Source: Amphiscolops sp. MND2022
Lineage: Eukaryota
Direction of reading: 5' to 3'
NCBI GenBank assembly: GCA_964187785.1
Contig: OZ076418.1
Location: 35,402,001 to 35,466,000, forward strand
DNA length: 64,000 bases
Positions 1,168 to 38,084 of the stretch are shown in pieces; the stretch's first letter is position 1; each line of letters begins with the position of its first letter. The notes under the pieces are model-generated. The model made no database searches and was not told the DNA's origin. It saw nothing but the letters and a program-made list of their open reading frames with translations. The position numbers and the translations under genes were made by a program.

Positions 1168-1365
1168 AGGCATCAATTTTCTAGAAACTTCAAAATTTTA
1201 AAGTGAGCTCCCTGAAAACTTGGAAGCTAATACGAATATAACCCAGCATTTCTGGAAACGAGGGATCAAGGAGTATCTTTTAAAGCACCGTTTGCGACCC
1301 AAATGGTAATACCTTTCGGACAGAATTTACGATAGATCACCTGTATTTTTTCTCTGGGTTTCTAC

Positions 1366-1674
1366 TGATATACCAGATATCTATGTTGCTTGATTTTATA
1401 TCATTCCCCCAACCCCCGTATGTCTAGACTTTATAACAAATGCACTTCATCAATATAACTGATTAATATTCTAGATGTAAACTTGATGTACCCACTTTAT
1501 ATTCTGTACGATGCATTTTGATTTAGAACACAACTATAATTCATTCTTCACCAACCAGTTGTCTTCTTTTACGACCTAATATCTGCAGCTCTATTAGTGT
1601 CTCTTAAAGTACTAAGATCAAATGAACATTCCATCTTCGTCCCACTGATCTATAGTAAGAACACAAGTACTTTA
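1366..1674 (+). repeat. 5' LTR (TG...TA)
   Basis: Matches 19111-19420 apart from two substitutions I could see (ctaTgttg/ctaCgttg, gaTtaat/gaAtaat) and an apparent 1-bp difference in a C-run. Confidence 0.95.
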
Positions 1675-1676
1675 AC

Positions 1677-1690
1677 TGGTGCGACCATCT
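1677..1690 (+). promoter_or_regulatory. Putative primer-binding site
   Basis: TGGTGCGACCAT begins 2 nt after the 5' LTR. TGG is complementary to tRNA CCA. The cognate tRNA was not identified. Confidence 0.65.
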
Positions 1691-1959: not shown

Positions 1960-2709
1960 CCCGTTTCTTTTCTTATAACCATTTTTCATACTTTAACTCT
2001 CTAATATACCTTCCTTTTCATTTTTGTATCGCTCCTTTTCCTAACCCACATTTCTTCACCATCACTTCACAATTCTCCATATTATTTCATGCCTTCTTTG
2101 AATGACTCCGTTTGTATTTGTTTAATCCTCCTTTATATTTTTGGTCTTTGCGCAATTGTTTTGCTCCTTGTTGACAAATTCATCCTGCCTTTTATTCCCC
2201 ACGCCTTTGATCAATATAGAACTTCATCACTTTAATAATTATATATGTTTCTCACCGAAAATCTTGCCACTATTATCCTTTTCGTTTCCTATATCTTCGC
2301 CATGATCGTTTTTCTAATGCTTCTTATTGAAAAAATCGTTCACTCTCTTTTCAACTAAATTCCCTTTCTTTCCATTTTCCCTTTTTCTTTCCCTATCACC
2401 TCCTTGATTTTTCCGCTTATTTTATTAACACCTCCCCTATCCTTTCGTACCATTCTCCTTTTCCTCACTTTGTTTGAACCTCCTCTTCCTTCACCCCACT
2501 CCCCTCCTTGCCCTTTTCCAACTTCTTTTTCTTTCCCTTTTCCTCATAACTACATCCATATATTTTTATCCCTCTTTCCTCTCCTTTTACACTTATCTTC
2601 GCCTCAAAATCCATCGGTACTTTCATCCTCTTCCTACTGAACCATCTATTCACCCTGACGTAATTATGGATTGGATTTGGTTACATTTCAATCCTCATAA
2701 ACACTCCTA

Positions 2710-5430
2710 ATGACTGATTCACATCTCCTTCTCCCCCTTCCTTTCGCCTCAAACCCCTCTCAACGTATTACCCGTGATATTTCACACACTCTTCTCCCAT
2801 TCCTCAACAATCTTATCTATAATTCAACCACTCCTCTTTCTTTTGAAACCTACCCGGAAGATATTTACACTACCCCACTAATTCGTGAACATCATGATTC
2901 CTATTTATATTATATTGCCACCAACTCACTTCTTCCAAATTCTGACGAACCCCCATTTTCTATTCCGTTCACTTCTCCCACAACTCACTGTGATACTTTT
3001 CAAAAAAATATCCATCCCAATAATATTCAAATTCCAATCGCCCATGTATTTACAACTTTTCTAAACAATCTCCAAGAAAAAAATAACCTTCTACCTAAAC
3101 ATGTTTTTAACCCTTCCTCCATTCAAGAACTTCTTCAAAAGGAATCTCTTTTTGACCTTCCTAATATTGAACAATTTCGCACTATTGAAAATAATCCTCA
3201 CCATTGGCTTTTCACAGATATACTTCAAATTCATCACTTTCAAAATCAATTTTTCCAAAATATTACCCTCAATAAAAATACCAAAGAACAAATTCAAATA
3301 TACTCCCTTTTTCTTCGCAAATTCTTCCGACATAATTACCAACTAATTTGGCATTCAAAATTTCAAAATGCCTGTAAAAACTTTCCGCAACAATTCACCA
3401 CTGATGAACTTCTACCTTTCCTCGATACTACTGATAACCAACATCCCCACTATTATAACCTTCTTGAATTTCCCTCCTCTCATTTTGTATATCTTATCTA
3501 TGATTCTAATAGTATTGATAAAAGCCTCAATCTTCCTCCTCCTGTCCGCCCTTATTTCCATCAACCCAATATTCCTCCTTCGAATGAGACAATTTCTACA
3601 GCTTCTATTCAAACTCTCTCTTCCTCGTCACATTCTGTGACAAATCCTACTTCATCTTTAACTCGACATATCTCTCCCCCTACCTATCAAGACACATCTT
3701 TAAACCACAACAATCCTCCTTCTACTTCTCAAATCACAACAATTCACAACAATCCTCCTCTCTCTCATTCACCCAATCAATACACAACCCCTTCTAACAC
3801 CCCACCTGCTGTTATTAGTAATCCCGTTCAACATTCAACTTTCCAAATTCCTTCATTAAACCCAATTCCACTTTCTTTAAATACCACTATGCCTGCTCAA
3901 TTTTTTTCTCAAAATCCTCCATCTTCTTCTACTCAAAACCATTCTACTCTTCAAACAACTTCTTCCACAACCCAATCTACATCATATAACCCTTATATTT
4001 CTCTTTATCCTACCTTTCAAAATTTCCCCACTAACTCTTTTCAACCCCCTCCAAATCCCCCTAATTCGCTCCCTCCCACTTCCACATTATCATTCAATCC
4101 TTCTTCCTCTTATCCTTCATTTCCTTTTCCAACCACTCCTTCTGTTCCTTTTGCTGCCCTTTCCGACCCTATTAAACTTTTTGATGGCTTAGATCATACC
4201 TATCCTCCAGAAAAATTCTTAGCCCACCTCAGCGCCCGTGTTACATTTCAACTTGGACCTCAACCTGTAGATATTCACTCATATTTAACTTGGCATTCTC
4301 GCCGAATGTCTCTTCTGTATTGTTCCCTCACAGGAACTGCTTCCAATTGGTATGACCGTCTCCCACAAGTTTATAAAGATGATTGGTCATCCTTTCTTCA
4401 AATTTTTAAGAAACAATTCTATTCCCAAAAACACGCATATCATGCTCAAATTGAAGCTCTTTCCCTTCTTAAAAAGGATAATGAAAATGTCCGTCACTTC
4501 GCCCTTAAAGTCGAAACCCTTGTAAAACAAGGTTGGTACAATGAATATCCTTCAACGATTAATCTTAAATGTAATGAAACTTTTACCCGTGGTCTCCCTA
4601 AAAAGTTAAAAGATTTCGCTAACAAACGTCAAGTTAAACATATTTCAAGTTCATTAGAACCATCAATCCCATTTCATTCTCTTGTTAATATGGTTGATTC
4701 CGAAGATATTACTCTTGAAAAAATTAAAACTCAAGAACTTTCCCTTGAAATTAACAATTTGTCTAATACCTTCCAACAGAATACAACAATTCAAGATTCT
4801 CCTCCAGAACCTCCACAAGTTCAAGTAATGGATCCTAATAATAAATCAAAACCCCAATTCAAAAAATATTGTTCATTCTGCCATAAAAACAATCACTCTG
4901 TTTCAACTTGTTTCCGCCGTCTCAATATGCTTAAAGAATCAAAACCACAATCTAGATCTCCGACTCCCACATTTTATCAACATTTTAAAAATCCTTCCAA
5001 TAAACCTCATTATTCTCCCCACCGTAGTCGAAGTTATAGTAATCCTCCTCGCAAATCTTCTCGCGACACTCGATATCAATCCCGTTCCTATTCACGTTCA
5101 CATTCACGTCCCCGGTATAATACTAAAACCTACTCCCGAACATATTCGCCTTATCACAATCGTGATAGATCTCGATATGATAAACATTATAACCATACTC
5201 AATATAAACCATATCTTCTACACGCTCATATTATAGTTCTAATTCCTCCCGTAGTCCCTCTAAATATTACCCTCGTTCTCGTGAACGTTCCTCAAATTTT
5301 AACACCTCTACCTTCAACAGATATAATTCTCCTTATCGTCCTCCTTCTAAACCACGTAATGATCGCTATCGTAGTAGATCTCATTCAAACTCGCACAACC
5401 ATCCTCAAACCCAATACAAACCCTCTATAA
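2710..5430 (+). CDS. gag: Gag (capsid-like region, CCHC knuckle, RS-rich tail); joins Pol after a 1-nt frameshift at ~5210
   Basis: LFDGLDHTYPPEKFL capsid-type region and CSFCHKNNHSVSTC knuckle. The RS-rich sequence continues in the -1 frame from 5214 straight into ORF 5499. Confidence 0.9.
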   Translation: MTDSHLLLPLPFASNPSQRITRDISHTLLPFLNNLIYNSTTPLSFETYPEDIYTTPLIREHHDSYLYYIATNSLLPNSDEPPFSIPFTSPTTHCDTFQKNIHPNNIQIPIAHVFTTFLNNLQEKNNLLPKHVFNPSSIQELLQKESLFDLPNIEQFRTIENNPHHWLFTDILQIHHFQNQFFQNITLNKNTKEQIQIYSLFLRKFFRHNYQLIWHSKFQNACKNFPQQFTTDELLPFLDTTDNQHPHYYNLLEFPSSHFVYLIYDSNSIDKSLNLPPPVRPYFHQPNIPPSNETISTASIQTLSSSSHSVTNPTSSLTRHISPPTYQDTSLNHNNPPSTSQITTIHNNPPLSHSPNQYTTPSNTPPAVISNPVQHSTFQIPSLNPIPLSLNTTMPAQFFSQNPPSSSTQNHSTLQTTSSTTQSTSYNPYISLYPTFQNFPTNSFQPPPNPPNSLPPTSTLSFNPSSSYPSFPFPTTPSVPFAALSDPIKLFDGLDHTYPPEKFLAHLSARVTFQLGPQPVDIHSYLTWHSRRMSLLYCSLTGTASNWYDRLPQVYKDDWSSFLQIFKKQFYSQKHAYHAQIEALSLLKKDNENVRHFALKVETLVKQGWYNEYPSTINLKCNETFTRGLPKKLKDFANKRQVKHISSSLEPSIPFHSLVNMVDSEDITLEKIKTQELSLEINNLSNTFQQNTTIQDSPPEPPQVQVMDPNNKSKPQFKKYCSFCHKNNHSVSTCFRRLNMLKESKPQSRSPTPTFYQHFKNPSNKPHYSPHRSRSYSNPPRKSSRDTRYQSRSYSRSHSRPRYNTKTYSRTYSPYHNRDRSRYDKHYNHTQYKPYLLHAHIIVLIPPVVPLNITLVLVNVPQILTPLPSTDIILLIVLLLNHVMIAIVVDLIQTRTTILKPNTNPL

Positions 5431-5498
5431 ATCTTACACATCCATCTACACCACCTCCTCAAACAAACTCCCAAACAGAATCTATTTTTGAAATCAAT

Positions 5499-8400
5499 AT
5501 GTATCATCCTAATATCTCCTCGCCCCAATTTTCTTCCACTTCCTCTGAACATGCTAATGCTATTACACCTTCCACTTGGTTCGTTAATCTATATATTTTC
5601 AAACCTAGTGAAGATACCTCTATTCCTTCTAAATTAGAACTCTTATTTCTTCTTGACAGTGGTGCATCCATTTGTGTATTAAATTTACCCACTTTTACCA
5701 TTTTAGCTGAACACTTCTTAAAATGTTCAACACATTCTCCACATCAAAACGAATACAAAACGTTAACTGTTGCCAATAAATCCGAAGTACCCATTCTTCA
5801 TAATATAATACTTACACTCCATACTTCTCTTAATGGAAATACTCGTACCCTTGTTATTCCTTTTGCAGTCGCATATATTAAATATAACATACTTGGAACT
5901 CCCTTCTTTGAAAAATATGTTAAAACTCTTAATATTGAAAACATGTTCCTCACATTTAACACTCCACACGAATCTCGTATTAACACTCTCCCTTTTACAG
6001 CCCATAAGGAAAAAGATTATCCATATTTTTCATATATATACACAATTAATGTTAAAATCAAATTTTATTTTAAACCCAACGCATCGCAAATTATTCATTT
6101 CCCTATTCAACCGACACTCCCGCTCACATTTAAAACCTCCGACAATGAAGTTATATTTCCTTCTACACCTCATCCATTTTTTAATACACGCTTCAATTCC
6201 ACCTTTAATTTTCTCCAAGTCTATCAAAATGTTAAAACTGAACCTTCAACCTGTTCTGTCATCATTCAAAATATTACACATCACTCCGCTACCCTTACTC
6301 CTGGATATATTGGATATATTGAAGTTCCTGCCACAAACATTCAACCCTCTCGCTATAAAGTAAATGATGTAAATTCTTTAATACATTCCGTATTCCATTC
6401 TTATTATCCTGATCTTTCAGAACCAAAACCTCCCCGTAGACGTTCTTCTCTCCGCAATCCTCAAATTGAAATAAACAATTTGCAGCCTTCCCAAATTTTA
6501 ACACGACCCCTTCCACCTTTACCATATTCACCAGATACTCAACAATTTCTTAACAAATTCAAATTTCAATATTCAGATGTTTCTGATGAAGAATATTTAC
6601 AACTGTGTTCCATTCTTGTCAAATACCGCACATGCTATGCAACACATAAAAATGATGTTGGTCAAATAGCTACCCCTTTTCGAATTCGCCTTAAACCCAA
6701 TGCTAAACTTCAAACCCAACGTCCTACCAAAGTTCCTATTCATTATAGGGAAAAATTGAAAAAACTTCTTGATGAATTAGAAAAACACAATATCATTCGC
6801 CAAATTGGTTCCACTCCCTCTGATAAATCCATCTATGGTACCACGTTTTTAAATCCTCTCATCATCATCCCCAAAGGAGACACTATTAAAGTTGTTTTAG
6901 ACGCACGTCATCTTAACTCTAATACCGATCAATCTTTTGAATCTTGGACTATTGAACCTTTAGCTCCCCAACTTGCACGCGCTAACAAAAAATTTAAATC
7001 CGCTATTGATCTTATGTATGCTTATGCTCACGCTCCATTAGATGAAGAAACTATTACTTCAACCAGTTTCTCCTCCGGTGACAAACTTTACGCTTTTATT
7101 CGTGGATTTTATGGTCTTAAAGGCCTACCCAATTTTTTACCAAACAAATGTATTCATTTTTCCAAAAACTTATTGACCAGGGCTTTGCACTAGTTTATAT
7201 TGATGACATCCTTCTTCTCGCCCATACCAAACCTCATATGTTAAATTTAATAGAACAACTTCACCAAATTTGTCAAACAAATAATCTTAAAATTGCCCCT
7301 GAAAAATCCTTCTATATTCTTCTCACTGTTAAATTTCTTGGACATGAAATTGGCAATAACACCATTAAACCTATTTCTTCCAAAATTGTTGCTATTCACC
7401 AATTAAAAACACCTACTTCTAAAACTGAATTAATGCGCTTCATCGGATCAATGAATTTTTACTCTAAATTCATCAATAAACTTCATATTTCTTTGAAACC
7501 TTTTTACACTCTTCTCCATGATGACATTTCATTTAAATGGACTCCTGAGTTAGACAAACTCTTTAATCAAATTAAACTTTCTCTTTCCAAAGATGCAGAA
7601 CTTGCTATTCCCAATACTACCCATCCATTCTACATAACAGTAGACGCCTCTTTAATAGGTTTAGGCGCAGTCTTATTTCAACCGAACTCCAAAAACAAAA
7701 TGCAAATAATTTCCTATAATTCCCGTATTTCAACAACCCAAGAACAAAAACTCTCTACTTATGATAGAGAACTTTGTGCTATTACCTTTGCCCTTTCCCA
7801 ATATGAATTTATTATTATTGGCTCCAAATTTCCTATAACTGTTTTTACAGATCATAACCCTATTCTTTTCCTCTTCACACGCAAAGGCAACCTAACTCCT
7901 AGACAATATAAAGCTCAAATGCTATTAACCAAATTTTCAAACTTGCAAATCATTCATACCGCTGGTACAAACCTTACTGTAGCTGATATGCTCAGTAGAG
8001 ATTTTTCAACTATTAATGCTAAAACTTGCCAACTCCACCATAAAACTCTTCCTCCTCATATTGATTTCCTACAACTCAAACAAAATAATATTTTGAAACC
8101 TATTCATTATCTCGTAAAACATGAAGATGTACTCCCTACACAAAAAAATGATTCACACTTAAGATTAGCCGATTATGGTGATGATCAATTTACACTCCGT
8201 ATCCAAGATAAAGGCAATGTTGTTAAATATACTCCTCTTGACTCCTTTTCTTTTCAATCTGTTTCCTCATTTTTAAATAAATACAAAAAACCTGTCAAAA
8301 ACAAAGTTAAAACTCTCCTCCAAGAAAACCCTCTTTTAAACGAAACTGATTTATATGACACAGACGATCCTGTTCTTAAACGAATTCCTCAACAATATTC

Positions 8401-10624
8401 ACAAACATCTCATGAACTTCACACCCTTTTTACAGAAGTACAACATCACTATTTTAACGACATTAATTTGTCACAAGATATTCTAACCAACTTTATAAAC
8501 TCCCCTCCTATTATTAATCATACTCTTCACAGTAATGCTATAACACCAACTTCCCCAAAAACCATAAATACTCAATCTTTGCCATTTTTTGACCCTTCCT
8601 TCTTTGCCCACCGTAAGGCATTTGACAATTTTTTCCTTCCTTCTGACACCTTCTTAACATTACCCATCTTACTTCAAGCTCAAAAGGATGATCCTGTTCT
8701 TTCTACAGTATATACATGGTTAAAACAAAAACAGAGACCTCACTCTTTGACCCCAATTATTAAAGCAAATTCTTTTTTATATACATATTACAAACAATTC
8801 CAACATCTATATCTAGACCCAAACTCTCACCTCATCCAATACTATACCCCCAATTCTCGAATTTTTGAAGAAATTTTTCTTAAAACTCAACCCTCTATTA
8901 ACCAGACACGTATATGTTTACCATTTAAACTTTTTTATGCCGCATTTAATAAAACACATTCTCATGGCCACTCCGGTGAAAAACTCTCTATTAAAACTTT
9001 TAACCAATTTTATTTTATTCCTCATCTACCTTTATGGTTCTCAATCTTCACCCATGACTGTATTGACTGCCAGACAAACAAACATTTTCCAAATAAACCC
9101 CAAAACATTTCTCCTCCCCTTCCCTTTTATGAAAACGCTACTCACTTTAATTACCGGATTTCTATGGACACTAAAGGTCCTATTTCCCCATCTTCTCAAA
9201 ACAACTCCTATATTTTTGTTATTATTGACGCATTTAGTCATTTCGTCGTTACTAACCCAGCTCCTAACATTAATTCCAAATATGCAATTCAAACTCTTCT
9301 CCATCATTGGATCACAAAGTTTGGTCCCCCTCAATACCTTGTCACAGATCGAGGTACTGAATATATTAATCAAGACATGGCTCATCTTTGTTCTCTCTTT
9401 CATATTAACCATTCACCTCGAACTCCCTATTCACCATGGACCAATGGTTTGGTCGAAGTCCAAAATAGAAACCTTGGAACTCATCTCCGGATATTTTTAC
9501 AAAATCCTCCTACTAACTGGTCATTTCAAACTCAAATGTACGCATATGCTCATAATACAACACCTCTTTCTCAGCTTAAACTTTCTCCATATCAGATCGT
9601 TTTCCATACCCATCCTCGCATACCTCTCACCTTTTCCCTTAATCTACCTCGAGATGCTCAAAAAAATTGTATTGCAACTTATTGCGAATCTCTTTCTCCT
9701 CATTCACATTATAGTACTCAAGATCTTAACCCATTTTTTCATTCTCTTCTTGACAAACCCATCTCCTCGTGGCTTTTAGCAGCTGAAACCGCAATGCTAG
9801 AAATATATTCAACTGTTCACCGCCATATAAACCATAAACTCAATTCCCTAAGTTCTACATTTGAAACAACCCACTTGAAACAACTACCTCTTAATACCTT
9901 CGTTATACATACAAACTTTAAACCAGTTAATTTTTCAAAAAAGCTCAAACCTCTCCGAATTGGCCCCTATAAAATACTTAAACATCTTTCTGAAGTAACA
10001 TACGAGCTCCTTTCTCAAGATGGCTCTACATTTCAAACTCACCGAAATCATATTCTGCCATATTACCCTAAAGAACCTATAATTTTTCCATACATTAAAC
10101 ATTATCATTCTACCCCTTCTCTTATTAACAACCCTGATACTGACTCTTACCAAGACACCTTTTCTCAATTCTCCTCTTTAGATTTACAACATAATTCTAA
10201 TTCGTCTCAGACTCCTCCTTCCTCCAAATCCAAACACTTTAACAGCTTCCCCCCTTCCATTCCTAACTACCAAAACCTTTCACATTATTCTTCCTTACAA
10301 GATCATTTAGACCATATTCCTTTCTCTACTACCAAACCTTTACAATCTTCCTCCTCTCAAGATAATCTTGATAATACAATAGACTCTCACGATTCAGATT
10401 TTGAAATGCTTCCAAATCCTATTTATTATTCAAACTCCTCACCTAACTCTTTCCCTCAGTTCTTTCTTCGTGTTGCTGATTCCCCTGATACTTCTTCATC
10501 TTCTTTACTTGAATCCCCCAATGAACCAACTTACCAACGAGCTCCTCATTCCCCATACATTTTACGTTCCCTCCCTCCTCGACATTATAATTCATCCAAA
10601 CCAAACATTAGCTTTCCTCCTTGA
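5499..10624 (+). CDS. pol: Pol: aspartic protease, RT, RNase H, integrase (split by a 1-nt deletion in a T-run at ~7133-7138)
   Basis: Protease LLDSGAS. RT VLDARHLN, AIDLMYAY, RGFYGLKGLPNF, VYIDD. RNase H TVDASLIGLGAVL, YDRELCA, TDHNP. Integrase HSHGH..CIDC, SMDTKGP, VTDRGTEY, NGLVEVQN, plus IGPY (GPY/F) motif. Confidence 0.95.
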
Positions 10625-10979
10625 TTAATATTCATTTTTTAAATGGATTTTCTCTCTCCTATTGTCCTCAGTCTAGACTTTTTTAAGTTCGACATGTGAC
10701 AATTTAATTAACCATTTTCTTCTAGTTCCATCTCCCCATTCTATCTCAAAAACACAAGCTGAACAGTTGCTTTCATCAAGACTGTTGCTTTCATCAAGAT
10801 TTGTTGTCATACAGAAACCATTAATATACAAAATCTAATCTTCAATTCTTTTCCTTCAATTCATTCATCATTGTCTCTACTTCCAATACTAATATCTGTT
10901 CATCCCTTCCTATTTAATAATAATCTTAAAAATTTGTTTTTTTTTCTTTTTTGTTTCCATCCTGGATCTCACTGTATTC

Positions 10980-12302
10980 TTGTCCGACTCTTCCTCTCGA
11001 ACCTCTTCTACCGTTTCAACTGACATTATACCTTCTTCACAAACTTCTGTATCAACTCAACAACCTCCTTTAAACCCTATCCCAATTACCCCTTCTTTAG
11101 ATACCACCCCTGTTAATACTCCAACCCATACTCCTCTTCAAACCTCTGTACCTCAACAAACTCAAACTTCTTTAACTCTTCCACTCTCTGATACAGAATT
11201 TCCTTTTGACATAACCCCTAATCATTCTCCACCTTCCTCTTCCTTTCATATTCCTGATCCAAGTGACATTAACCCTACTCTTCTTCGAAATATTAATAAC
11301 CCCACTCTTCCTCGATTAAAACTTATTCCTACTTCTATAAAATCTTTTCGCCGTCGCTCCCAATTAGATAATTCTCTTTCTATCCCTCCACCTTGTTCTC
11401 ACACCTCTACTAAGTCTTCTTTACCTCCTCCTAAACCTCTTAAAATCCCCGTACTTGAATCTATTGATTCACTCCAGAAAAAATCAGATTTGAGTGAGAT
11501 CGATTCAACTACTTCCTCTCTTCTTTACCCACGTCTTCCACTTTCCAATTCTGCTTCTAAATATACAACTTCTTCCTTAGATAATCTTCTTGACACTTCC
11601 TCTGAATCTACTATTCGCCATCCCCTTCGTCATAGATATAATCTCCGTAATAACCGTCGTCCTTCTCCTTCCCTTGCAAGCACTAACTCTTCTCTTTTAC
11701 GCCACCACGCTCAATCTCTTTCTTCAGAATCCCTTTCAAACGCAGAAAACACTCCTACTTCTGGAATTGACACTGTCTTTTCTCAACGTTCCTCTATTTC
11801 TTCTTATAATCACACTGGTCATCTTTTCTCTCGCCCAACTTCTCAAAATTCCAGTCTTCTTTCATCTGACAATCACTTACTTAACATTGATCTTACCACT
11901 GATCAATATTCTACTCCTCCTACACCTAATCGTGTCGATTATCCTCTAATTGTAAATCATACACTTGTTAATAGCCCCCGCCAAGATCCTCGTTTTCTTC
12001 ATCTTGCCACTCATAAACTTAATTCAAATCTCCATATTTCCGACACACGTCGTCGTAAAGAATTTCTCCGTCTCGAAGAACCGAGTTTAGAACTTAAATT
12101 TGAAATTAACGTCAAATTCCATAACTTAAGTCCTCATCTCATTCCTTCCCATACAACAATAAATTTTAAATCTCTTCCCCATCCATTTATTGCCACCAAT
12201 CTTAGTCTTTTTGTTAGTGATCATCCACCATTTCGTCTTTTACACGGTTCAATTACTTTTCTTAATACCCTCACCTTTTTAAAATACACTGCCCAATTTT
12301 AA
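10980..12302 (+). CDS. Ser/Pro/Thr-rich accessory ORF (440 aa) with no AUG codon
   Basis: Open for 1.3 kb between pol and env. Basic patch RHRYNLRNNRR. The only Met in the ORF-track translation is the initial TTG. Confidence 0.6.
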   Translation: MSDSSSRTSSTVSTDIIPSSQTSVSTQQPPLNPIPITPSLDTTPVNTPTHTPLQTSVPQQTQTSLTLPLSDTEFPFDITPNHSPPSSSFHIPDPSDINPTLLRNINNPTLPRLKLIPTSIKSFRRRSQLDNSLSIPPPCSHTSTKSSLPPPKPLKIPVLESIDSLQKKSDLSEIDSTTSSLLYPRLPLSNSASKYTTSSLDNLLDTSSESTIRHPLRHRYNLRNNRRPSPSLASTNSSLLRHHAQSLSSESLSNAENTPTSGIDTVFSQRSSISSYNHTGHLFSRPTSQNSSLLSSDNHLLNIDLTTDQYSTPPTPNRVDYPLIVNHTLVNSPRQDPRFLHLATHKLNSNLHISDTRRRKEFLRLEEPSLELKFEINVKFHNLSPHLIPSHTTINFKSLPHPFIATNLSLFVSDHPPFRLLHGSITFLNTLTFLKYTAQF

Positions 12303-12306
12303 AAAA

Positions 12307-15077
12307 ATGTTCTTCCTTTTTTTAACTCACTATATTATTTTCTCCCTTCCCTTCTCTTGGTACTTTCTCAAAATTCTCCATCTTCCGATCATGTAGATCC
12401 CAATGATCCCCATATTTCGGACCTTTTAGTCTCTCACTATGATTGCTCTAAACAACATAATTTAAGACAGTTTAGTCTTACCCGAGTTCAACCATGCGTT
12501 CAAGCCCCCTCTGCTTTTGAAACAACACGCGCTATTGTCAATGTCTTTGTTCGTGCTAAAGCTAAACGCCTTCGCGCTTGGACCTGTGAAGCATACATAA
12601 AACGAGAAAAATTTGTCTGTGCCCAATCTGATTACAAATATCGTCGTCATGACCGTACGGACTATCATCAAAATACCATGGAACGTCCTCGTACTCTTGA
12701 TCCAACCGAATGTAAACACGCTATTCGTCATTTAAACGGAACTCATAATCCTCAACTCGATGCTTTTAATTATTCCAATTCTTTTACCTTTTTCAATGAT
12801 ATTCAAAAACAACGCCTTTTAGAAACAAAACAACCTCCTTTTCGTATTACTAAACTCAATACTTATCATTATGGTGCTTTTGCTTGGATCACCAATTCAC
12901 AATTAGTATTAAACTCAACTCTGAAAGAAAAAGCTGTTTGCTGGGACCGCTATGAATATATTATTGAAAAAGACAGATGGTCTCTCATCGTAAAAGAAAT
13001 TGAAATCACTTATGATGACAAAGAAAATAAATTAATATATCATGGACATACTTTACCTTGCCTCCACGACGATGGTTTTTGTAAACCAACAATATTAACA
13101 CCTTTCACCATTGTTTGGTTTCCTGAAGACCTTTGTTTAATTTTCTCTATTCATTCCTTTATTGGTCGAATGTCTAAACTCAATAACCGCTATTGGCTTG
13201 AAACTGAACATTTTTTTAATAATCATTTCTCTACTGAGTCAGCCAATTCTCCTTACCACGATACCAAATCTCAAACACGTCTTTCTCGCTTTGAAATTTT
13301 TCCTGAAAACAAAATGTTTTGTAATAAACCTACCCCCTTACATCTTACGCAATATCCTGACTTGTTTGTAACGTACACCGAAGGTTTTAATATGCAAACT
13401 GCTAAACATAATCCTCTTCAACTTCCCCAAGACGAACAATACAACCAACTAACCACCCAGTTAATATCTGGAAAATTAATTCATACTAAAGATAAACTTC
13501 TTTTCCCTGCCCTAAATTCTTCGAATAACTTCGCCACCATCGATTATGAAGCTCATATTAACACTAAACTTGATTACTCAATAAATCATGTTTTTAAAAG
13601 CATGTCTGTTGCTGAACTTAACACTCTTCACACTATATGTGAAGTCGAACGTACTCAACTTTTAACCATACTCGCTATGTCTGTTAAAAATCCACAAATT
13701 GCTGGTTTCCTCTTAACCCAAAATCGTAGCAACTTTTTATATGTTGAAGGCTCTACTGCCTGGTTATATGACTGTCCTCATCACCTTTCACCTCTCTATA
13801 TTGCTGACCAATGTTATGACAAGATTCCTGTCAATTATCTTGACACTGTCATGTATGTAGATCCTATTACACGTCAAACTTTTGAATATGCTAACCAAAT
13901 ACCTTGTGAAAATAATCCTCAAAATGTTATTTCTCTTGACCCAGACACCGATCAATATTACGTTCTAACTCCTCAACCTATTGAAAAAGATCCCCCTCTT
14001 CTTTTTGAACCAACTCAAATTCAAACCGCTATTAGCCCGAATACTTTCACCGCTCAAGACGCTGGCATTTATTCACAAAAAGAATTAAAACATTTTTGGA
14101 ACCGAGTTTTATTCACTAAACACTCTGATAATACTCTCCAGCTTCTCGGAAAAGCTATCAGTTATGAATTCATGAATCAACAATCTGACAATTCCTTTCC
14201 TAGTAATCCTTATCGATCACTCCGAATTGGTCTTCATGACTACATGTTAAACCTGACCCCATTCTTCTCTCCTGACTGGTTTACTAATGCTTTCATCAAA
14301 CTTTTTGGCTATCCATGCTACATTCTAACTCAATGTGGAATATACTTCTCTACTGCTCTTTTTCTACAATTCGCTTTCAATACACTCTTTAGTATTTACC
14401 GTTCATTCACTGTTCGAAATCTTCTTAAAAAACAAATTTCCGTAATAACTGCCTTAGGATTTGGTTTCTTTGGCACTATTACCAAAACCATGATGACTGC
14501 TATGATTAAATCAACTCATTCATCTTCAGATTCTGACGATTCTGATTCTCCTCATTCCCCTTTAGCAAAAAATAATACCACGTCTTCCAGTTCTAAATCT
14601 CGTCCTCCTAAATATCATACAAATATTAAAACAAAACTTCTTAGTTTAAAAAATAAAAATCCCATGAACAGAACTTCACCAAACTCTTCACCTATTAAAC
14701 CCCCCTCTTCCTCGGTAATTCATGCTACTTCCATTAATCCTACACACCCCCCTAACACCGAAGATTATTCGCCTCCACCTCCAAATTATAATTCTCACCT
14801 TTCATCTCATAATAATCTTTCTTTCCCACACTCCCAATTACCTTCATTATCTTCTCCTCCATATTTTCATAATTCGCCTCTTCCTGATGACACAAATTGT
14901 GATAACTCTTCTACTGATTCCCCCATTCATAATCCCTGGCAATCTACTAAAATGTATCCTCCTACTCCGCCACCAATTAAAACTAATGACATTCCGTTAA
15001 CTTCTGTCAATAATATTCTTGACCCACCTGACAGTCCTGTCAAAGTTTATTCTTCTTGTCGCTTCCCTCCAGAATAA
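12307..15077 (+). CDS. env: Envelope glycoprotein resembling chuvirus-type (class III, gB-like) fusion proteins
   Basis: Signal peptide MFFLFFNSLYYFLPSLLLVLS from ATG 12307 if one T is restored in the run at 12317-12323. Cys pattern HYDC..NLRQFSL..VQPC..WTCEAYIKREKFVC and WLYDC..ADQCYDKIPV..MYVDPITR..QIPC. Hydrophobic TM segments at ~14310-14510, then a long S/P-rich tail. Confidence 0.8.
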
Positions 15078-15398
15078 TATCTTTATCTTTCACTTTATTA
15101 ATTCTCATTCTGAATCTTAAACACCCTAACCTAATTCAATTTACATACTAATATTCTACCTCTTTTACATAATAATTATAGTTCTTTTAAAACCACTTCC
15201 TTTTTCATTTTTCATCATTCTTGCTTTCACTCTGGTCACCCCTACTCACTTTTTCCAAACATATTTCTTGAACTTTTCTATAACACCTTACTTTCATCTA
15301 AAACTCATATAATCTTTTCTAAATAGAAAACGCACATTCGTATAACTTTACCCAAACGCACATTCGTATAAACTATTCATTTTTTCTCTCCAAACAAA

Positions 15399-16874
15399 AT
15401 GGTCACTATCAATCCTGATGAAGAACTCCTTTCTAGTATCGCATCTTTGTCACCCCCTCTTTCTCCTAAATCTGGTACTCTTGATCTTCCTCTTACAAAT
15501 GACCCCCTTCCTCTTAATTCTAACACTACTCCAGAACCTACTGTAAATAGTAATTCCACCACTTCCCAATCCAATAAACCATCTTCTAATATTCTTAAAT
15601 CTCGTCATTCTCCCACTCCACCCCCAAATAATCTTCATATCACTATTGATAATCATCCCATTCCTCCTAAAAAGAAATACAATATTCTCGAAGATCCTGT
15701 CTTCATTGATTCTGGTATTTTACCCCCAACTCTTCAACCATTAAAAACTCCTACCCAATCTAATACAATGACTGACGAATTCCTCCGTACTCATCCAAAT
15801 TTTAAAGCTAACCTCCCTTCATTGTACATGACCCCCACTACTTATAAATTTCGCTTTCCTCAAGATCGTAGTTTTGACCACTATGTTGCTTATGCTTCCA
15901 AAAATTTACCACAACTCGCCTATTGGCAAAACAATCGTGTTCGTTTCTTCCAATTCCAATTCAACCTTCTTAAACCAACCCAACATGATTTAAATACCAA
16001 TCCCAATGATATAACCACAACTCCCTCTGTTAAAAAACTTCATCACCAAACCTATCAACTTTTTCTTCAACACAAACATCCTCAAAACTTCATCTTCCAA
16101 AATCATAAATTTACTTCTCCATTTTCATACCATTCTCACTATTCATTGAATCACCTCTTCACTATTGGAACAATTCGTAATTATGATCCTGTAAAACAAT
16201 ATTTTGTTCTCTCTTCCTATCATGATCCTACTCGGCCGTTATTTGTCCCTCAAGAAGCACTTAATGTAAATGACGATTTCCTACTTCCTACACACATTCC
16301 TAACGCTGTTCAAAACTTCTTCCCAAAAATGACAAAATTAGTAGAAACACCTCTTGATGATCATTCTCGTTCACTCTACACTGCATTAGTTCGCAAACAC
16401 TATTCTCTTGCACAACTCAATTTTATTATTGCAAAACTTTCATCTTTTATTCTAAAAAAACAATACAAATATTTCTCATTAAACATCTCTGATGAAATCC
16501 TCCAAACTCTTCCTAAACATACTCCTCCTAACACTACGTCTGAACCTTCACACATTTCAGCAATCCCTCCTCCATCTACTTCGTATGTTCTTCAAACTGC
16601 CAATCCTAATGTTTGCATCAATTCCTTCTCTTGTCCCACAGACAAATTTGTCTCAGAAATACTTACTCTTCTTCGTCCACATGTTGAAATTGCTCCTAAT
16701 ACTGATCCTTTTGTTATGTTAAACCACATCTTTGACACTTTCCGTAATCTTCAATCTCTACTTCAACTACACTCAACTGATATCCAAAATTTAACGATTT
16801 CTACAATTCATGTTAACGATTTCCTTAAAAAACTTGTTCTACTTGAAACTCCTTCTCAATTCACTTACTCTTAA
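15399..16874 (+). CDS. Accessory ORF of unknown function (491 aa)
   Basis: ATG-initiated and uninterrupted, sense to gag-pol, inside the LTRs. P/S-rich N-terminus followed by a globular-looking region. Confidence 0.7.
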   Translation: MVTINPDEELLSSIASLSPPLSPKSGTLDLPLTNDPLPLNSNTTPEPTVNSNSTTSQSNKPSSNILKSRHSPTPPPNNLHITIDNHPIPPKKKYNILEDPVFIDSGILPPTLQPLKTPTQSNTMTDEFLRTHPNFKANLPSLYMTPTTYKFRFPQDRSFDHYVAYASKNLPQLAYWQNNRVRFFQFQFNLLKPTQHDLNTNPNDITTTPSVKKLHHQTYQLFLQHKHPQNFIFQNHKFTSPFSYHSHYSLNHLFTIGTIRNYDPVKQYFVLSSYHDPTRPLFVPQEALNVNDDFLLPTHIPNAVQNFFPKMTKLVETPLDDHSRSLYTALVRKHYSLAQLNFIIAKLSSFILKKQYKYFSLNISDEILQTLPKHTPPNTTSEPSHISAIPPPSTSYVLQTANPNVCINSFSCPTDKFVSEILTLLRPHVEIAPNTDPFVMLNHIFDTFRNLQSLLQLHSTDIQNLTISTIHVNDFLKKLVLLETPSQFTYS

Positions 16875-16891
16875 ACCTCTCTCTAACTGTA

Positions 16892-17698
16892 ATGACATCT
16901 TATCCTCCTTCGACATTGGCATATCCTCTTCTCAATCAACTTCTGGACTCTTCGCTGCCATTCCCTGTTTCTTCCACTTCTTCAACATTCACTCTTCCAA
17001 CTGTTGCCGCTACCTCTTCATCATTCCCCATTTCTTCATCATCCGCATCATCCACTGTCGCATCTGTGATATCATCCAATGTTGCATCTGTAACATCTGC
17101 TGTTTCACTATCACCCATTTCTTCTTTCGTCAATACTACAGCTTCAAATACATCTGCCTCAACTACACTTCCAGTGCTTTCTTCTTCTATTTCGTCTCCA
17201 GTTTCATCGATCGAGTCTCCTTTCTTCCTTCATCCCAAAGATGCTGTTGCCACTTCTCCACATTTCCAACAATATTCAGCCGTCCGCCAATTGACCCGTG
17301 ATCTTCAACAGAAAAAACCCAAGCATCCCAGACGTCCACACTTGCCTTCCGATATAATTCATCAACCTGTTCGTCGACTGGTCCACACAGTGGTCTATAA
17401 ACAAAAGTTGAACCAGTATATAGAGGCCCTCAAATTGTATGAAAAACACATTGATGAACTTATTGAACAAACTACTTTTGAACTAGATAAAATTCATAAT
17501 AAACCCCCCTTTCCAAATTGCAATAATTTAAAACGCCTCAGCCCATACAATTATCCCCTCTATCTATTCAAATCCCTTCTAATAATTGCTATAATCATTA
17601 TAATTGTTTCTCCTCTAATACTCTCCATTGTTCACATGTTCCTATCAACTATGCTATTCATTCACATTTTCCTCCCCCTCCACCTTCCCCGGCCTTAA
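16892..17698 (+). CDS. Accessory ORF of unknown function (Ser-rich N-terminus, helical charged middle; probable frameshift at ~17530)
   Basis: Starts 17 nt after the previous stop. A -1 frame opening at TTTAAAA gives a C-terminus (QLSPLSIQIP...PPPL) more similar in composition to the element's other ORFs. Confidence 0.55.
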   Translation: MTSYPPSTLAYPLLNQLLDSSLPFPVSSTSSTFTLPTVAATSSSFPISSSSASSTVASVISSNVASVTSAVSLSPISSFVNTTASNTSASTTLPVLSSSISSPVSSIESPFFLHPKDAVATSPHFQQYSAVRQLTRDLQQKKPKHPRRPHLPSDIIHQPVRRLVHTVVYKQKLNQYIEALKLYEKHIDELIEQTTFELDKIHNKPPFPNCNNLKRLSPYNYPLYLFKSLLIIAIIIIIVSPLILSIVHMFLSTMLFIHIFLPLHLPRP

Positions 17699-19110
17699 TC
17701 CCCATTCGCATTGAAGCCATAACCCCCACTTTTCAACCCCCCTCCCCTCTAAACGATTTAGACCAGTTGGTAACTTCGTTGAACGACGTTGACTAAAGAA
17801 TCATTGATTAAATATTTTTTGAATTTTTATCATTCATATTCTGAACATATTCACTTTGTCTGTTTTCAAACACATCTTTTAACCCCCCATGTTTTTCTTG
17901 ACCCTTATAACCTCTACTATTGTACTATACCTTCCATTTTTTCTAAATTTTTCAAAATTTCCTCACTAAAATTCCCATTTTTTTCCCGAAATCTGCTTGT
18001 AACTTCGGTTCTAACAAATCAGTTTTTTCAAATTCTATCTTAGCATGATGCTTTTGACCTACTTACTCTTAAATGCTGGAGCTATCCATTTTCCTCCCTT
18101 TTCTTCACCATTAATAAACTTTTTGAACCATAATTCCAAATTTTTTCTCTTCCTCCCAAATCATTTTTTGACTTTACTCCTCTTTAACTTCAATTCAACA
18201 AAATCTCTCCTTTTTAATCTTACTCCTACTAAATCATATGTTCAAACCTACTTACCTCGGTATCTAACTCTTCTTCACTTGCTTTTTAACAAACTAAATT
18301 TGCGTGATCAAAACATTTCTTCCATTTTCTCAATTGAAAAAATACCTGTATGTGATATAAATTTGAACAAATATTGACTCATATGGCTTTGTTTTCGCTT
18401 AAAATTTGCTTTCTTACGCCGCCTCTTTGCTTTGAAATTCTGACGTCTCATTTTAGTTGATTAAAAAGGCCCATAAGACAAACGCTTAGTTAAAAAACAA
18501 CTAAGAATCTTCGGCTTCTTGCATGAATTTCCTCGTCAATTAGGCTGTCAAATTTTGCCATCTCTCACTTTTCATGTTCTCCTCCTTGTCAATCAAACTT
18601 TTACCGCCTCGGAAGATACTAACTCATTCGTCCTGTACAACATTTTCATGAAATCTGAAACAATTTTGCTGAATTCGTAACCAACATGAACATGTCGAAT
18701 TTCAAATATAGAACTGAAAATTATTTAAAATAAAATTTTTCTTCTTCCTCTTCTTCCTTTCCTATTCTCTCATGTATTCCTGACCTATTAATTAAAGTTA
18801 ATACCTCACTCCCTTGAAGATACTTTTATTTACACTAAAAACATCGAAAAATGCCCGTAACTCACGAAAGGAAAGATATGAAGACAACTCTATAATTAAA
18901 ATTTTTTTTTATTATTATTCACAAAATATATGAAGACAACTTTTCAAATGAAAACCCCTATTGCAAGATTATTAAAATTCCTCCTTTTTCTCTCTCTAAA
19001 CATATTGAACTAAACTCCAACCTTTTTAATGGAACCCCAATTTCCAAGATACCTTTTAACAATAACTCTAAAAAATTTTTTCCTTTCTCTTTTTTCAAAA
19101 CCCGGTCGGA

Positions 19111-19420
19111 TGATATACCAGATATCTACGTTGCTTGATTTTATATCATTCCCCCAACCCCCCGTATGTCTAGACTTTATAACAAATGCACTTCATCAAT
19201 ATAACTGAATAATATTCTAGATGTAAACTTGATGTACCCACTTTATATTCTGTACGATGCATTTTGATTTAGAACACAACTATAATTCATTCTTCACCAA
19301 CCAGTTGTCTTCTTTTACGACCTAATATCTGCAGCTCTATTAGTGTCTCTTAAAGTACTAAGATCAAATGAACATTCCATCTTCGTCCCACTGATCTATA
19401 GTAAGAACACAAGTACTTTA
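19111..19420 (+). repeat. 3' LTR (TG...TA)
   Basis: Direct repeat of 1366-1674, followed by the TSD CTAC. Confidence 0.95.
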
Positions 19421-20363
19421 CTACATAGTCAAGTATTTCCCAGTGTCTAAAAAGTCTAAAATTTTACATGGATTTAGAGCTCTCGGCTAGTTATCTCTTC
19501 CTTGATGCCGAGAATTACCTAGATTGTCTGGATGAATATACTTTGCTTTTCACATTAGTCATGCCATCTCAACAACATGAGACTGACAACATTTGTCAGT
19601 TATTAAAGCAACTCTGAAGTGAGTCAAGTTGAGTACGCAAAAACTTCAGTAAACAAGCTGACTCACGTTCAACAGCTGTACCAGACATTCACACATACTG
19701 TGACGGTACCGCTTTTGATCTTATTCAGCGTCGCGCTCTGCAGAGTCTGTTTGCTTAAAAATTTTTTGACTGTTTGACTGACGTTAAAAACAAATGCCAC
19801 CCGAGACATGCTATTGAAGCTAATGTTTAATGATTAACCACATGTACAAAGGGCCAACGTCTCTTTCATGTTTACGCAGCGTGTCGCTCTGTTTGTCCGA
19901 TCTGTAATTTACAACCACGGAAATCTTTGACACTCGGGACATAATTAATGAAGCTACTGTTTAATGAACAATTACTAATACAAAGGATCGGCGTTGCTTT
20001 TTTGTTTACTCAGCAGGTCGCTCTATTCATTCAATCTGGAAATGGCAAAAACATATCTATTGATCCAATATCAATTTTGCATCCGGTCGGCTCGACCAAA
20101 ACAAAAAACCCATACTAAACTTGTTGACGATCAACAAGCGAAAGGAAATGAATCGAATATTGAGGTCTTGTTTCTTTTTCAAGCATTGAGATCTTGTTTC
20201 AAAACGTTCATGAATTTTTCCAACTGAAAAAAAACAAAGCTATTGTGATTTTTTCAAAAGTTTGTGCCAGATGAACATTGTTTAGTCTAGGACAAGTTCT
20301 CTCTTGTGTCAAGTATCACCGCGCTTTGGTTTACTTCTTGTTAGTACTTCTTCTTCTTTAAGT

Positions 20364-20735
20364 ATGTTCTCTTCTTTCAGCTCTCTCACATTCTCAAAAG
20401 ATCTCGAGTTTGGAGACACCCATTGTGTTGTGGCTTCATCTGAAAAACGACTTGTTCGTGTGACGACAAACACCAATAAAAACAGTGGCATCACCTACAT
20501 CAACATCGAACTCTTCAAGAAAAAAGAGGATAAAGATGAGTATCGCCTGCAACAGAGAGTGGGACTCACTGTCAAGGAGTTTCAGGAAATTATAGCGAAT
20601 GTGGAAAACATTAACATGGGCCCTCCCAATCCTTAAAGTAGTATGGGGGAGAAAAAATTCAACAAAAGGATTGCTCAAAGCGATACGGGGGATGCTGAGG
20701 TTAAGAAGCAAAAACCTGCTGATAAGAAGGAATGA
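20364..20735 (+). pseudogene. PC4/Sub1-like ssDNA-binding protein (premature stop at 20634-20636)
   Basis: KRLVRVTT..GITYINIELF..RVGLTVKEFQEIIANVENI resembles the PC4 pattern. The inverted copy (28193-28547) reads through the stop but is frameshifted elsewhere. Confidence 0.55.
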
Positions 20736-28547: not shown

Positions 28548-29789
28548 GGCTGATTTTTGATATATTTTGACGGGTGATTATGCTGTGCTACCGATGATCT
28601 CAAGACAAAAGTCTGAAACAAATTGAGAACATACTTAAAAAAGAAGAAGTACTAAGAAGAAGTAAACCGAAGCGCGGTGATACTTGATACAACAGAGAAC
28701 TTGTCCTAGACTAAACAATGTTCATCTGACACAAACTTTTGAAAAAATCAGAATAGCTTTGTATTTTTTTCAGGTGCAAAAACTCATGAACGTTTTGAAA
28801 CAAGATATCAATGCTTGAAACAGAGACAAGACCTCAAAATTCAAATCATTTCCTTTCTCTTGTTCATCGTGAACAAGTTTAGTATGGTTTTTTTGTTTTG
28901 GTCGAGCCGACCGGATGCAAAATTGATATTGGATCAATAGATATGTATTTGCCAATTCCAGATTGAATGAATAGAGCGACCTGCTGTGTAAACATAAAAG
29001 CAACGCCGATCCTTTGTATTAGTAATTATTTATTAAACAGTAGCTTCAATAGTTGTGTCCTGAGTGTCATTGATTTCCGTGGTTGTAAATTCCAGATTGG
29101 AAAAACAGAGCGACACGCTGCGTAAACATGAAATCGACGTTGGTCTTTTGTACATGTGATTAATCCTTAAACAGTAGCTTCAATAGCGTGTCCCGCGTGG
29201 CATTTGTTTTTAACGTCAGTCAAACAATCAGAAAATAATTAAGCAAACAGACTCTGCAGAGCGCGACGCTGGATAAGATCAAAAGCGGTACCATCACAGT
29301 ATGTGTGAATGTTTGGTACAGCTGTTGAACGTGAGTCAGCTTGTTTAGTGAAGTTTTTGCGTACTCAACTTGACTTGCTTCAGAGTTGCTTTTATAACTG
29401 ACAAATGTTGTCAGTCTCATGTTGTTGAGATGGCATGACTAATGAAAAAAGCAAAGTATATTCATCCAGAAGTCTAGGTAATTCTCGGCATCAAGGAAAA
29501 GATAACTAGCCGAAAGCTCTAAATCCATGTAAAATTTTAGACTTTGCGGACTTTGTGAATAGATCTCTAGACATTGGGAAATACTTGACTATGTAGAAAT
29601 CTAGAGAAAAATTACAGGTGATTTACCGTAAATTCTGTCCGATAGGTACTACCATTTGGGTCGCAAACGTTGCTTCAAAAGATACTCCTCGATCCCTCGT
29701 TTCCAGAAATGCTGGGTTATATTCGTACTAGCTTCCAAGTTTTCAGGGAGCTCACTTTAAAATTTTGAAGTTTCTAGAAAATTGATGCC

Positions 29790-30470
29790 TGAGCTAAGAT
29801 TCGATGAACACGGTCGTATAGGACCTATATTCGATATATCTTTCAAAATACAGTATCATACTATAGGTCTAAAGTAGCTAAGGCGTGATGAACACATTTG
29901 TAGAGGCCTCATATTTGACCTATCTTTCATCATACAGTACCATATTATACGTCTAAAATAGCTAATATTCGTTGGACATTGTCGTATAGGACCTGTATTC
30001 GACCTATCTTTCAAGATACAGTACCGTACTATAGGTCTAAAGTAGCTAAGATTCCAAAAACACATTTGTATAGGCCTCGTATTTGATCTATCTTTCATCA
30101 TACAGTACAATATTATACGTCTAAAGTAGCTAATATCCGACGGACACGGTCGTGTGGGACCTGTATTTGACCTAACTTTTAAAATACAGTACCGTCTTTT
30201 AGGTCCAATGTAGCTAAAATTCGATGAACACATTTGTGTAGGATTTTTATTTGATCTATTTTTCAAAATGGAGTACCATACTATAGGTCTAATGTTGCTG
30301 ATATTCCTTGAACAAACTTGTTTTGGCCACATATTTGATCTATCTTTGATCTTACAGTAACATACTAAAGGTCTAAAGTTGGTAACATACGATGAACACA
30401 TTTGAATAGGCCTCATTTTCGATCTAACTTTCAATATACAGGACCATACAATAGGTCTAAAGTAGCTAAG
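29790..30470 (-). repeat. 84-bp minisatellite (~8 units), uninterrupted copy
   Basis: Reverse complement of the arrays at 762-1167 and 45905-46195. Contains the empty site of the DNA transposon (30194-30195). Confidence 0.9.
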
Positions 30471-36630: not shown

Positions 36631-37853
36631 ATATTCATAATTAATTTCACATTTGAATTACATTTTTAGCCGATTTTCGCTGCTATTAGAAGTCAGAGAG
36701 ACAGAAGATGTCCAAAATGTCTTTCGTGAAAAGAATATGTTTTCATACGATACTTCAAACAGTCGATAATCTGAGCTTGATGGATGGTCTCTGTTGGCGC
36801 CAGTCAATTGCGAGATCAAAAACTCAAATTCGAACGTGACTGATGAAACACACAACTCAAAACACTCAGAAATTTTGTCAAGATTTGAACTGGAAAATTA
36901 CAAAGTTCAGCAGAAATATGCCTGAGGGAAAAAACACCATCCCCCTTTTTTTGAGAAGCACTTGTCCAATGACCCTGAAACTTAGCATGTATATACTAAA
37001 GGTGCTAACTCAACTCTCACTCAGAAAATCGAACCTCGTGTCGCCCCTGGGTTCGGGGCAATTAACACCCACGGAGATCTGGGTCGGACCCCATGAAAAC
37101 CCAATTTTGATGTCTTATTAAGTATGTGATTTTCTCATTTGACCTTAAAGAAAATGTAACTCCGTTGACATTTATTAGCTTTACTTTGTGTAAACATACT
37201 TTCTAGCCTACCTAACCAACATGCCAAAGCCACCACATAGTTTCTTTACTAAGCCAATAACTTTATTTTATGCTTTAAATGTCATTTATTTATACAACAT
37301 ATTTCAACTGATATTTGCTTATATTTACTGTAGAATTGTAAACAATATGTTTACCATTATTAGATAGAGATTTTCTCCACTGAAAAGCTATAGTCAAGTT
37401 GGGTTTCAGGACCGCGAGACTAATTAATCAACTTCTCAATCTTCACAACTGTTCGCTAGAGTTAAAGCGACTAAGTAGCTACTCTCATAGTTGGAGAGCC
37501 GGAGCGCCTGAAGATACTGTAAGGGAAGTGTGTGCAGGATTACATCGGATCCAATTCAGTGCAAAAAGGAATCGCAGGAGATTCCACGGGTCACATCGGA
37601 CCCACCAGTCAAAGATACAGTCCTTTAAAACACGAAACCAGGATTTGTTTAGTGACGGTCCACAGCACTCAGCAACGTGGGTCACGGCGGCGTAAAGTTT
37701 GTCAAGCCTCAGCGCAGGATAAGGGCAAGCAGCCGTTACATTTGGTCCGCCGACCCAGACAAGAAGAAGACGAGGACAAAGACGTCTCGTCGGTGGACAA
37801 GTGAGAAGTTTGCCCGAGAAGAACAAGTGTCTGGATCTTGGAGTCTCTGACTT

Positions 37854-38045
37854 TGTGTCTCTTGGAGTTTGGGCTACTGTGTCTCTGGGAGTTTGGGCTA
37901 CTGTGTCTCTGGGAGATTGGGCTACTGTGTCTCTGGGAGATTGGGCTACTGCGTCTCTTGGAGATTGGGCTACTGTGTCTCTGGGAGATTGGGCTACTGC
38001 GTCTCTGGGAGATCGGGCAACTGTGTCTCTGGGAGATTGGGCTAT
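37854..38045 (+). repeat. 24-bp tandem repeat (~8 copies) in the BEL leader
   Basis: Unit TGTGTCTCTGGGAGATTGGGCTAC. Confidence 0.9.
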
Positions 38046-38084
38046 TGTGACTTTGGGAATTGAGTTCGATCAAAAAGGAAACAG

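Follow-up and report, generated by a model that had tools for sequence, protein, structure and literature searches.

A Ty3/gypsy-type element with a chuvirus-G-like env gene and a conserved, probably CTG-initiated ORF upstream of it, in the genome of a probable acoel

Layout of the element, its relatives and the host

The window, that is, the whole 64,000-nt stretch of contig OZ076418.1 (assembly GCA_964187785.1) that was analysed, contains an LTR retrotransposon of 18,055 bp (LTRs included) with the following features, in window coordinates:

1362-1365 (+): left target-site duplication (TSD), 4 bp, repeated at 19421-19424
1366-1674 (+): 5' LTR, TG...TA, 99.0% identical to 19111-19420
1677-1688 (+): PBS-like motif TGGTGCGAC..., with the same start in 6/6 elements
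2710-5430 (+): gag, Retrotrans_gag with one CCHC knuckle (Pfam and ORF list)
5208-10624 (+): pol, PR-RT-RNase H-IN(GPY), RT motif YIDD (Pfam and motifs)
10962-12302 (+): ORF4, Met-free, 446 codons, conserved CTG start with A at -3 and G at +4
12307-12365 (+): env start region; in the window copy ATG 12307 and the signal-like stretch 12309-12365 lie in different frames
12420-14300 (+): env ectodomain, PF24664 family, best stretch 13485-14183
14322-14492 (+): env membrane anchor region, two moderately hydrophobic segments
14508-15077 (+): env cytoplasmic tail, Ser/Pro-rich, 189 aa with 39 Ser and 35 Pro
15399-16874 (+): ORF6, 491 aa, soluble, no known family, in all four families
16892-17698 (+): ORF7, Ser/Thr-rich, weakly conserved, dN/dS 0.29
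19111-19420 (+): 3' LTR, pair of 1366-1674

Judged by domain order, motifs and the LTR, PBS and TSD, the carrier is a Ty3/gypsy-like (Metaviridae) element, in agreement with the original prediction of a Gypsy-type carrier. The pol domains are gypsy-type (RT_RNaseH, Integrase_H2C2, rve and GPY/F), follow the order PR-RT-RH-IN and include YIDD and GPY. The gag-pol-env anatomy is common to this element and the Drosophila errantiviruses (gypsy, ZAM), and the TSD of gypsy is likewise 4 bp long. A 4-bp TSD and a PBS were present in 6/6 elements examined, the LTR ends being TG...TA in family 1 and TG...CA in families 2-4; the PBS-like motif had no match in the tRNA table in Supplement 1 of PMC13524379. 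Two other identities were rejected: BEL/Pao, as the gag is Retrotrans_gag and DUF1759 is confined to a separate element at 38085, to which no similarity was found; and Troyka, on the ends and the 4-bp TSD, Troyka elements having CG...CG ends and a 3-bp TSD (PMC12440569).

The window copy is a broken, passively duplicated copy. Its gag quits the gag-pol frame near 5210, whereas gag-pol is a single ORF in other copies, its pol is split into two frames within RT (7121-7193), and it is missing ~640 nt found after ORF6, just upstream of ORF7, in 8/9 other copies. The window lies within a ~61.9-kb tandem duplication, the flanks of which match at 99.1-99.4% (window with L055-L057). In the duplicate element, pol contains a ~590-nt insertion that matches the BEL-type LTR found at 37153-37740 of the window; an in-frame Met is present in the env of the duplicate, but this env is broken further down. 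The BEL/Pao-type element of the window (36792-43303; DUF1759 gag at 38085-40043; LTRs of ~950 nt at 93.7%) apparently sits inside another repeat. The gypsy-type element is itself inserted in another repeat (758-1365 and 19418-20380), an intact copy of which lies inverted at 28613-30199, and a strong C-over-G skew (GC skew -0.3 to -0.7) is limited to the element (window 2000-19000).

At least four families of ~18 kb with the layout gag-pol-ORF4-env-ORF6-ORF7 are present in the genome, env being ~50-58% identical between families. Among the scored matches, those to env at 95-100% identity number at least 70, 50, 63 and 50 in the four families, and the ectodomain is stop-free in 62 of the 70 family-1 matches. 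Five other elements were delimited by coordinates, with LTRs 17.7-18.8 kb apart; since their LTR pairs are 99.5-100% identical, the amplification is recent. A search of the genome with the PF24664 profile (see below) gave 5,702 candidate places, of which 68 were scored, with env frames of ~700-950 aa and many further lineages; env genes of this type are very abundant in the genome.

Between the window copy and a divergent family-1 copy (dS 0.6-1.0), dN/dS was 0.03 for the env ectodomain, 0.04 for the anchor and 0.18 for the tail, 0.06 for pol, 0.065 for ORF6, 0.11 for ORF4 (0.06 for its C-domain) and 0.29 for ORF7. By these ratios ORF4, ORF6 and ORF7 are under purifying selection. According to PMC6431247, Burro of planarians (>30 kb) and the foamy-like ERVs of fish (up to 17 kb) are likewise large LTR elements that carry an env and can code for accessory proteins; at 18 kb, the present element is smaller than Burro and Ogre and similar in size to the fish ERVs. 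It differs from both in kind, as Burro carries an F-like env in frame between gag and pol and the fish ERVs belong to the Retroviridae (PMC6431247).

The host is most likely an acoel, as read from one mitochondrial contig: the COX1 of the assembly follows the invertebrate mitochondrial code, with AAA standing by context for Lys, AGR for Ser and ATA for Met, and its best named homologues are those of acoels (75% and 73%), with other phyla at 61-67% and a more distant acoel at 62%.

The env product and its family

The stop-to-stop env frame at 12303-15077 (+) is open for 924 aa. A signal peptide, a YDC start, a cysteine block, a membrane anchor and a Ser/Pro-rich tail had been predicted for the product, and all of these are present in that frame, the anchor being moderately hydrophobic; however, ATG 12307, where the gene had been placed, is off the env frame, and the spacing of the cysteine block was loosely given, its literal pattern having no match in env. 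ATG 12307 lies one frame off and opens just 29 codons. An in-frame Met precedes YDC in 10 of the 11 other env copies fetched (the 11th was unreadable, with an internal stop), so that the window copy must be broken near 12307-12330, by either mutation or sequencing error.

The hydrophobic N-terminus (aa 3-21) has the top Kyte-Doolittle 19-mer mean of the protein, 1.71. YDC occupies aa 46-48 (12438-12446) and is followed by an N..SL..V..C pattern, the majority pattern among 22 env homologues. The cysteine block reads C491...C504-Y..IP....YVDPITR....IPC535 (aa 491-535, 13773-13907). The two anchor segments, aa 674-692 and 712-730, have only moderate hydrophobicity means (1.41 and 1.31), and two internal 19-mers are as hydrophobic; in the homologues the anchor columns are strongly hydrophobic. 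Signal, cysteines and anchor are retained in env homologues down to 25% identity.

Against Pfam, the window env matches PF24664 (Monjiviricetes_fusion) in two stretches with 95.8 bits (cut-off 27; E 2e-27), and no other family at E ≤ 0.1, the baculovirus F and gypsy env families included. The same family is matched by 22/22 aligned homologues, and nothing else in Pfam (E ≤ 0.01). Given these matches and the ectodomain dN/dS of 0.03, a chance resemblance is rejected. The prediction of a chuvirus-type glycoprotein instead of an errantivirus F protein is thus borne out at the level of the family, and by its profile match the window env is a chuvirus-G-like (PF24664) family member. The match expresses membership of the family, not special closeness to chuviruses: compared through the family profile and not with a named Jingchuvirales G, the env scores well above the cut-off, and it differs in residing in a retroelement and in its long Ser/Pro tail. 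A class I, F-type errantivirus env was rejected, there being neither a Pfam match to the F or gypsy env families nor an R-x-K/R-R furin motif in the window env; the gypsy and ZAM elements of Drosophila have a baculovirus-F-like (class I) env with a furin site, and the present element has neither.

Env is assigned to class III by family, through the PF24664 label and published work. A long env helix, ending CE...NP ahead of the cysteine block, may resemble the central helix of gB. PDB sequence searches with env alone and with a profile of 112 env sequences gave 0 matches at E ≤ 10, as is expected at such distance, and the ESM Atlas gave no usable match for env or ORF6. A predicted chuvirus glycoprotein is described as resembling the herpes gB-type class III proteins in a preprint (10.64898/2026.08.30.748148), and the same glycoprotein is termed chuvirus-like and gB-like in PMC13524379 (Chary & Hayashi, eLife).

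We propose that Env would be a type I membrane glycoprotein, forming trimers on virus-like particles and fusing these with host cells, and that the element would pass by means of Env from soma to germline, like the Drosophila errantiviruses. It might be argued from the missing furin motif and the likewise missing structural match that the env-like gene no longer serves as a particle fusogen, acting instead in receptor blocking or particle-free cell-cell transfer, or that it is not a fusogen. We regard this as highly improbable: no part of the element is as constrained as the ectodomain, the signal, cysteines and anchor are kept across the distant homologues, and env is retained within hundreds of young elements. 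The furin site, moreover, is not always kept in gB-type env (PMC13524379).

Probable long association of env with a gypsy pol

The independent capture of a class III fusogen by a Gypsy-type element, as originally suggested, is not supported by the genomic setting of the relatives. Six distant env lineages sampled in the genome, 26-29% identical to the window env, lie downstream of a related gypsy pol in 6/6 cases, and a related env is likewise downstream of a gypsy pol in the unrelated metagenome contig L036. Trees of the env ectodomain and of the integrase core (11 rows, ten lineages) contain no well-supported split in conflict and have in common the splits {families 1-4}, {1,1b}, {2,3}, {f5,f6,f7,f9} and {f5,f7}; both have long branches and are free of reference sequences for chuvirus G, the env of Anakin or published errantiviruses, and L078, which has a broken integrase and is close to L075, was excluded. 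A quick 31-row env tree, in which many branches are long and no row is a named reference, was not used to draw any inference about a donor.

As env adjoins a gypsy pol in all six distant lineages and the trees do not conflict, long co-inheritance is indicated in place of a fresh capture, and ancient co-inheritance of env with pol is, on these sequences, the simpler reading; an exchange may have taken place long ago, where families 1-4 have their base. An independent and fairly recent acquisition of a chuvirus glycoprotein by this lineage, comparable to that by Anakin within the BEL/Pao group, is very unlikely. In addition to the linkage in 6/6 lineages and L036 and the agreement of the trees, the nearest env relatives outside are just 24-35% identical, and 0 of 23 pattern matches in viral contigs could be confirmed as env relatives. 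PMC13524379 also argues for an ancient env-pol association. Anakin itself, a mosquito Pao-chuvirus hybrid (PMC7642597), is alike in having a chuvirus-like glycoprotein in an LTR retroelement amplified by retrotransposition, but is of the BEL/Pao type, whereas the present element has a Ty3/gypsy-type gag and pol.

Neither would such a capture be a novelty. According to PMC13524379, chuvirus-like or gB-type env genes reside on many Ty3/gypsy elements: one search found 114 elements with an Anakin-type glycoprotein adjoining a gypsy pol, and gB-type env genes occur across metazoan phyla; an earlier paper had regarded the gypsy association of such glycoproteins as fragmentary only (PMC10084718). 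A class III-type env on a gypsy backbone is therefore already known from print, and ordinary by itself. The HSV/gB-type "ancient errantiviruses" of PMC13524379 resemble the present element in the Ty3/gypsy pol, in env lying 3' of pol, in the chuvirus-like/gB-type glycoprotein with signal, ectodomain and anchor, in being multicopy, in the tRNA PBS and in env-pol congruence. The present element differs from these in its size (~18 kb), in three extra conserved ORFs and in a 1.7-kb pol-env gap that contains ORF4. The prefilters given in PMC13524379 admit a pol-env gap of ≤1,000 nt and, for most non-insect genomes, ≤10 kb. Acoels are not named in its main text or 7 supplements, and the main text contains none of the terms accessory, non-AUG, CUG, leaky and splic-.

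Proposed expression of ORF4 and env, and the accessory ORFs

ORF4 has no Met in 4/4 families. It begins with a CTG in the context A..CTG.G in 17/18 copies; the sole exception, L071, has CTT at this place and is interrupted by an internal stop. The families are homologous from this CTG onward, and the length of open frame ahead of it ranges between 6 and 85 codons. Among the Leu codons of the element CTG is rare (10/522), and among the 62 alignment columns with Leu in four families the start column alone is CTG in all four.

The tract from the CTG to the env AUG measures 1,174-1,511 nt and is poor in ATG. ORF4 of the window is ATG-free in all three frames; over the tract, ATG in any frame occurs 0 times in five family-1 copies and 2, 3 and 2-3 times in families 2-4. 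Pooled over four families (one copy per family, expectation from dinucleotide content), 7 ATGs were observed versus 35.5 expected (P 7e-9), a count that does not amount to four independent trials, as the families are related. The seven ATGs open uORFs of 1-17 codons. In 11 other regions of the window element the observed/expected ratio of ATG was 0.6-1.3, and the 321-nt env-ORF6 spacer had 0 versus 1.0.

A conserved near-cognate codon in strong context and an AUG-poor tract to the next ORF are thus both present. CUG initiation requires A/G at -3 and G at +4 according to PMC3542737, where scanning of ~895 AUG-free nt after a non-AUG ORF is described for the rice tungro bacilliform virus. The conserved CTG and the AUG desert are best modelled, by analogy with tungroviruses, as the mark of a non-AUG start followed by leaky scanning, a combination that PMC3542737 describes for the rice tungro bacilliform virus and others. 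The similarity lies in the non-AUG first ORF and in the long AUG-free tract that leads to leaky scanning downstream (ORF I-II-III); the difference is that the tungrovirus is a plant pararetrovirus with a pregenomic RNA and shunting (PMC3542737), while in the present element a subgenomic ORF4-env RNA would be used. Such an RNA would begin between the pol stop (10624) and 10962; a minority of the ribosomes would start ORF4 at the CUG, yielding little ORF4 protein, and the remaining ribosomes would scan through 1.2-1.5 kb poor in AUG until they reach the env AUG and produce Env.

In insect errantiviruses env is made from a spliced RNA. This precedent, together with the SL trans-splicing used by acoels (30.2% of genes in the acoel genome paper, PMC9911081), speaks for a class III-derived env expressed differently, in that cis-splicing, SL trans-splicing or separate promoters would give rise to ORF4 and env, and the CTG would belong to a cis-element. 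We consider this unlikely, since no AG acceptor is conserved around the beginning of ORF4, with none in the 150 nt that precede the ORF in 3 family-1 copies, the AG nearest to the env AUG lies at 3, 15, 48, >60 and >60 nt in five elements, and the depletion of ATG in all frames over 1.2-1.5 kb would be left unexplained.

The model of CUG initiation and leaky scanning is limited to the clade of families 1-4, as the six distant lineages are without ORF4 and mostly show weak depletion: in 5/6, 7-12 ATGs were observed upstream of env versus 11-18 expected. In the sixth, L074, which also is without ORF4, the 1,300 nt upstream of env have 1 ATG versus 10.8 expected; this tract is perhaps a long scanned leader.

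We think it probable that the explanation as a whole holds, namely a recently amplified env-bearing Ty3/gypsy element, an "errantivirus" as Chary & Hayashi broadly use the term, of a probable acoel host with a gB/chuvirus-G-type fusogen (class III by family) that has long been together with pol, and with ORF4 and env on a bicistronic RNA. What is new here is the probable acoel host, the four ~18-kb families with extra ORFs under selection, and the CUG with its ATG-poor tract. In the literature searched, to which most subscription journals and Repbase reports did not belong, we found neither such elements in acoels nor a CUG/leaky-scanning env in LTR retrotransposons; the mechanism is known from plant pararetroviruses and RNA viruses and, within that literature, is novel for the env of an LTR retrotransposon. 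We give an even chance to the proposition that acoels harbour a "complex" enveloped Ty3/gypsy lineage of ~18 kb, with three accessory genes of no known family, in which ORF4 and a class III fusogen are expressed from one RNA through a CUG start and leaky scanning over >1.2 kb, and that this lineage remains infectious inside the animal and is a main driver of its gigabase genome.

The elements extend the env-bearing Ty3/gypsy group to animals near the base of the bilaterians and so close a gap in the case made for their pre-Cambrian origin. They have a retrovirus-like complexity, with accessory genes under strong selection, and survey size filters could miss such elements. The CUG with the AUG desert offers a testable answer to a question left open in PMC13524379, that is, how gB-type elements express and use Env, and with hundreds of young copies, in animals that lend themselves to laboratory work, tests by RNA analysis, ribosome profiling and microscopy are easy.

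The N-terminal half of ORF4 is rich in Ser, Pro and Thr and has an RYNLR motif, and its C-terminal domain of ~130 aa is conserved. As the RYNLR motif echoes the pol tail, our best guess, held with low confidence, is that the ORF4 product is a basic, disordered accessory protein binding nucleic acid or Gag. ORF6 has 28 homologous matches, 43-97% identical; its product is a conserved, soluble accessory protein, which could, speculatively, antagonize host defence. Pfam gave nothing credible for ORF4, ORF6 or ORF7 (best E 0.02-0.19, below cut-offs), and PDB sequence searches with the ORF6 profile and the ORF4 C-domain profile gave 0 matches at E ≤ 10. The metagenome contig L036 (13,166 nt) contains gag, pol, a PF24664 env and, downstream, two mutually similar accessory ORFs; an SH3-like likeness of ORF6 to an accessory ORF of L036 was dropped (hhalign probability 0.2%).

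Two alternative-frame ORFs were also noted. One, of 320 aa within the integrase (8817-9779, +), is 320-321 aa long in 7/8 close copies and absent from the divergent family-1 copy and from families 2-4, and was set aside as a probable by-product. The other, of 200-250 codons, lies at the Arg/Ser-rich gag-pol junction (~4830-5430) in 4/4 families (L058, L049, L067 and L070) and could be a product of composition or of a frameshift. Downstream of env in the L074 lineage, an ORF with a MATH/TRAF domain (L080:821-1852, E 8e-22) recalls the MATH_TRAF_C of Burro, and at 59527-61461 (+) the window contains a single-exon ORF of 644 aa with a SET domain (E 5.5e-9).
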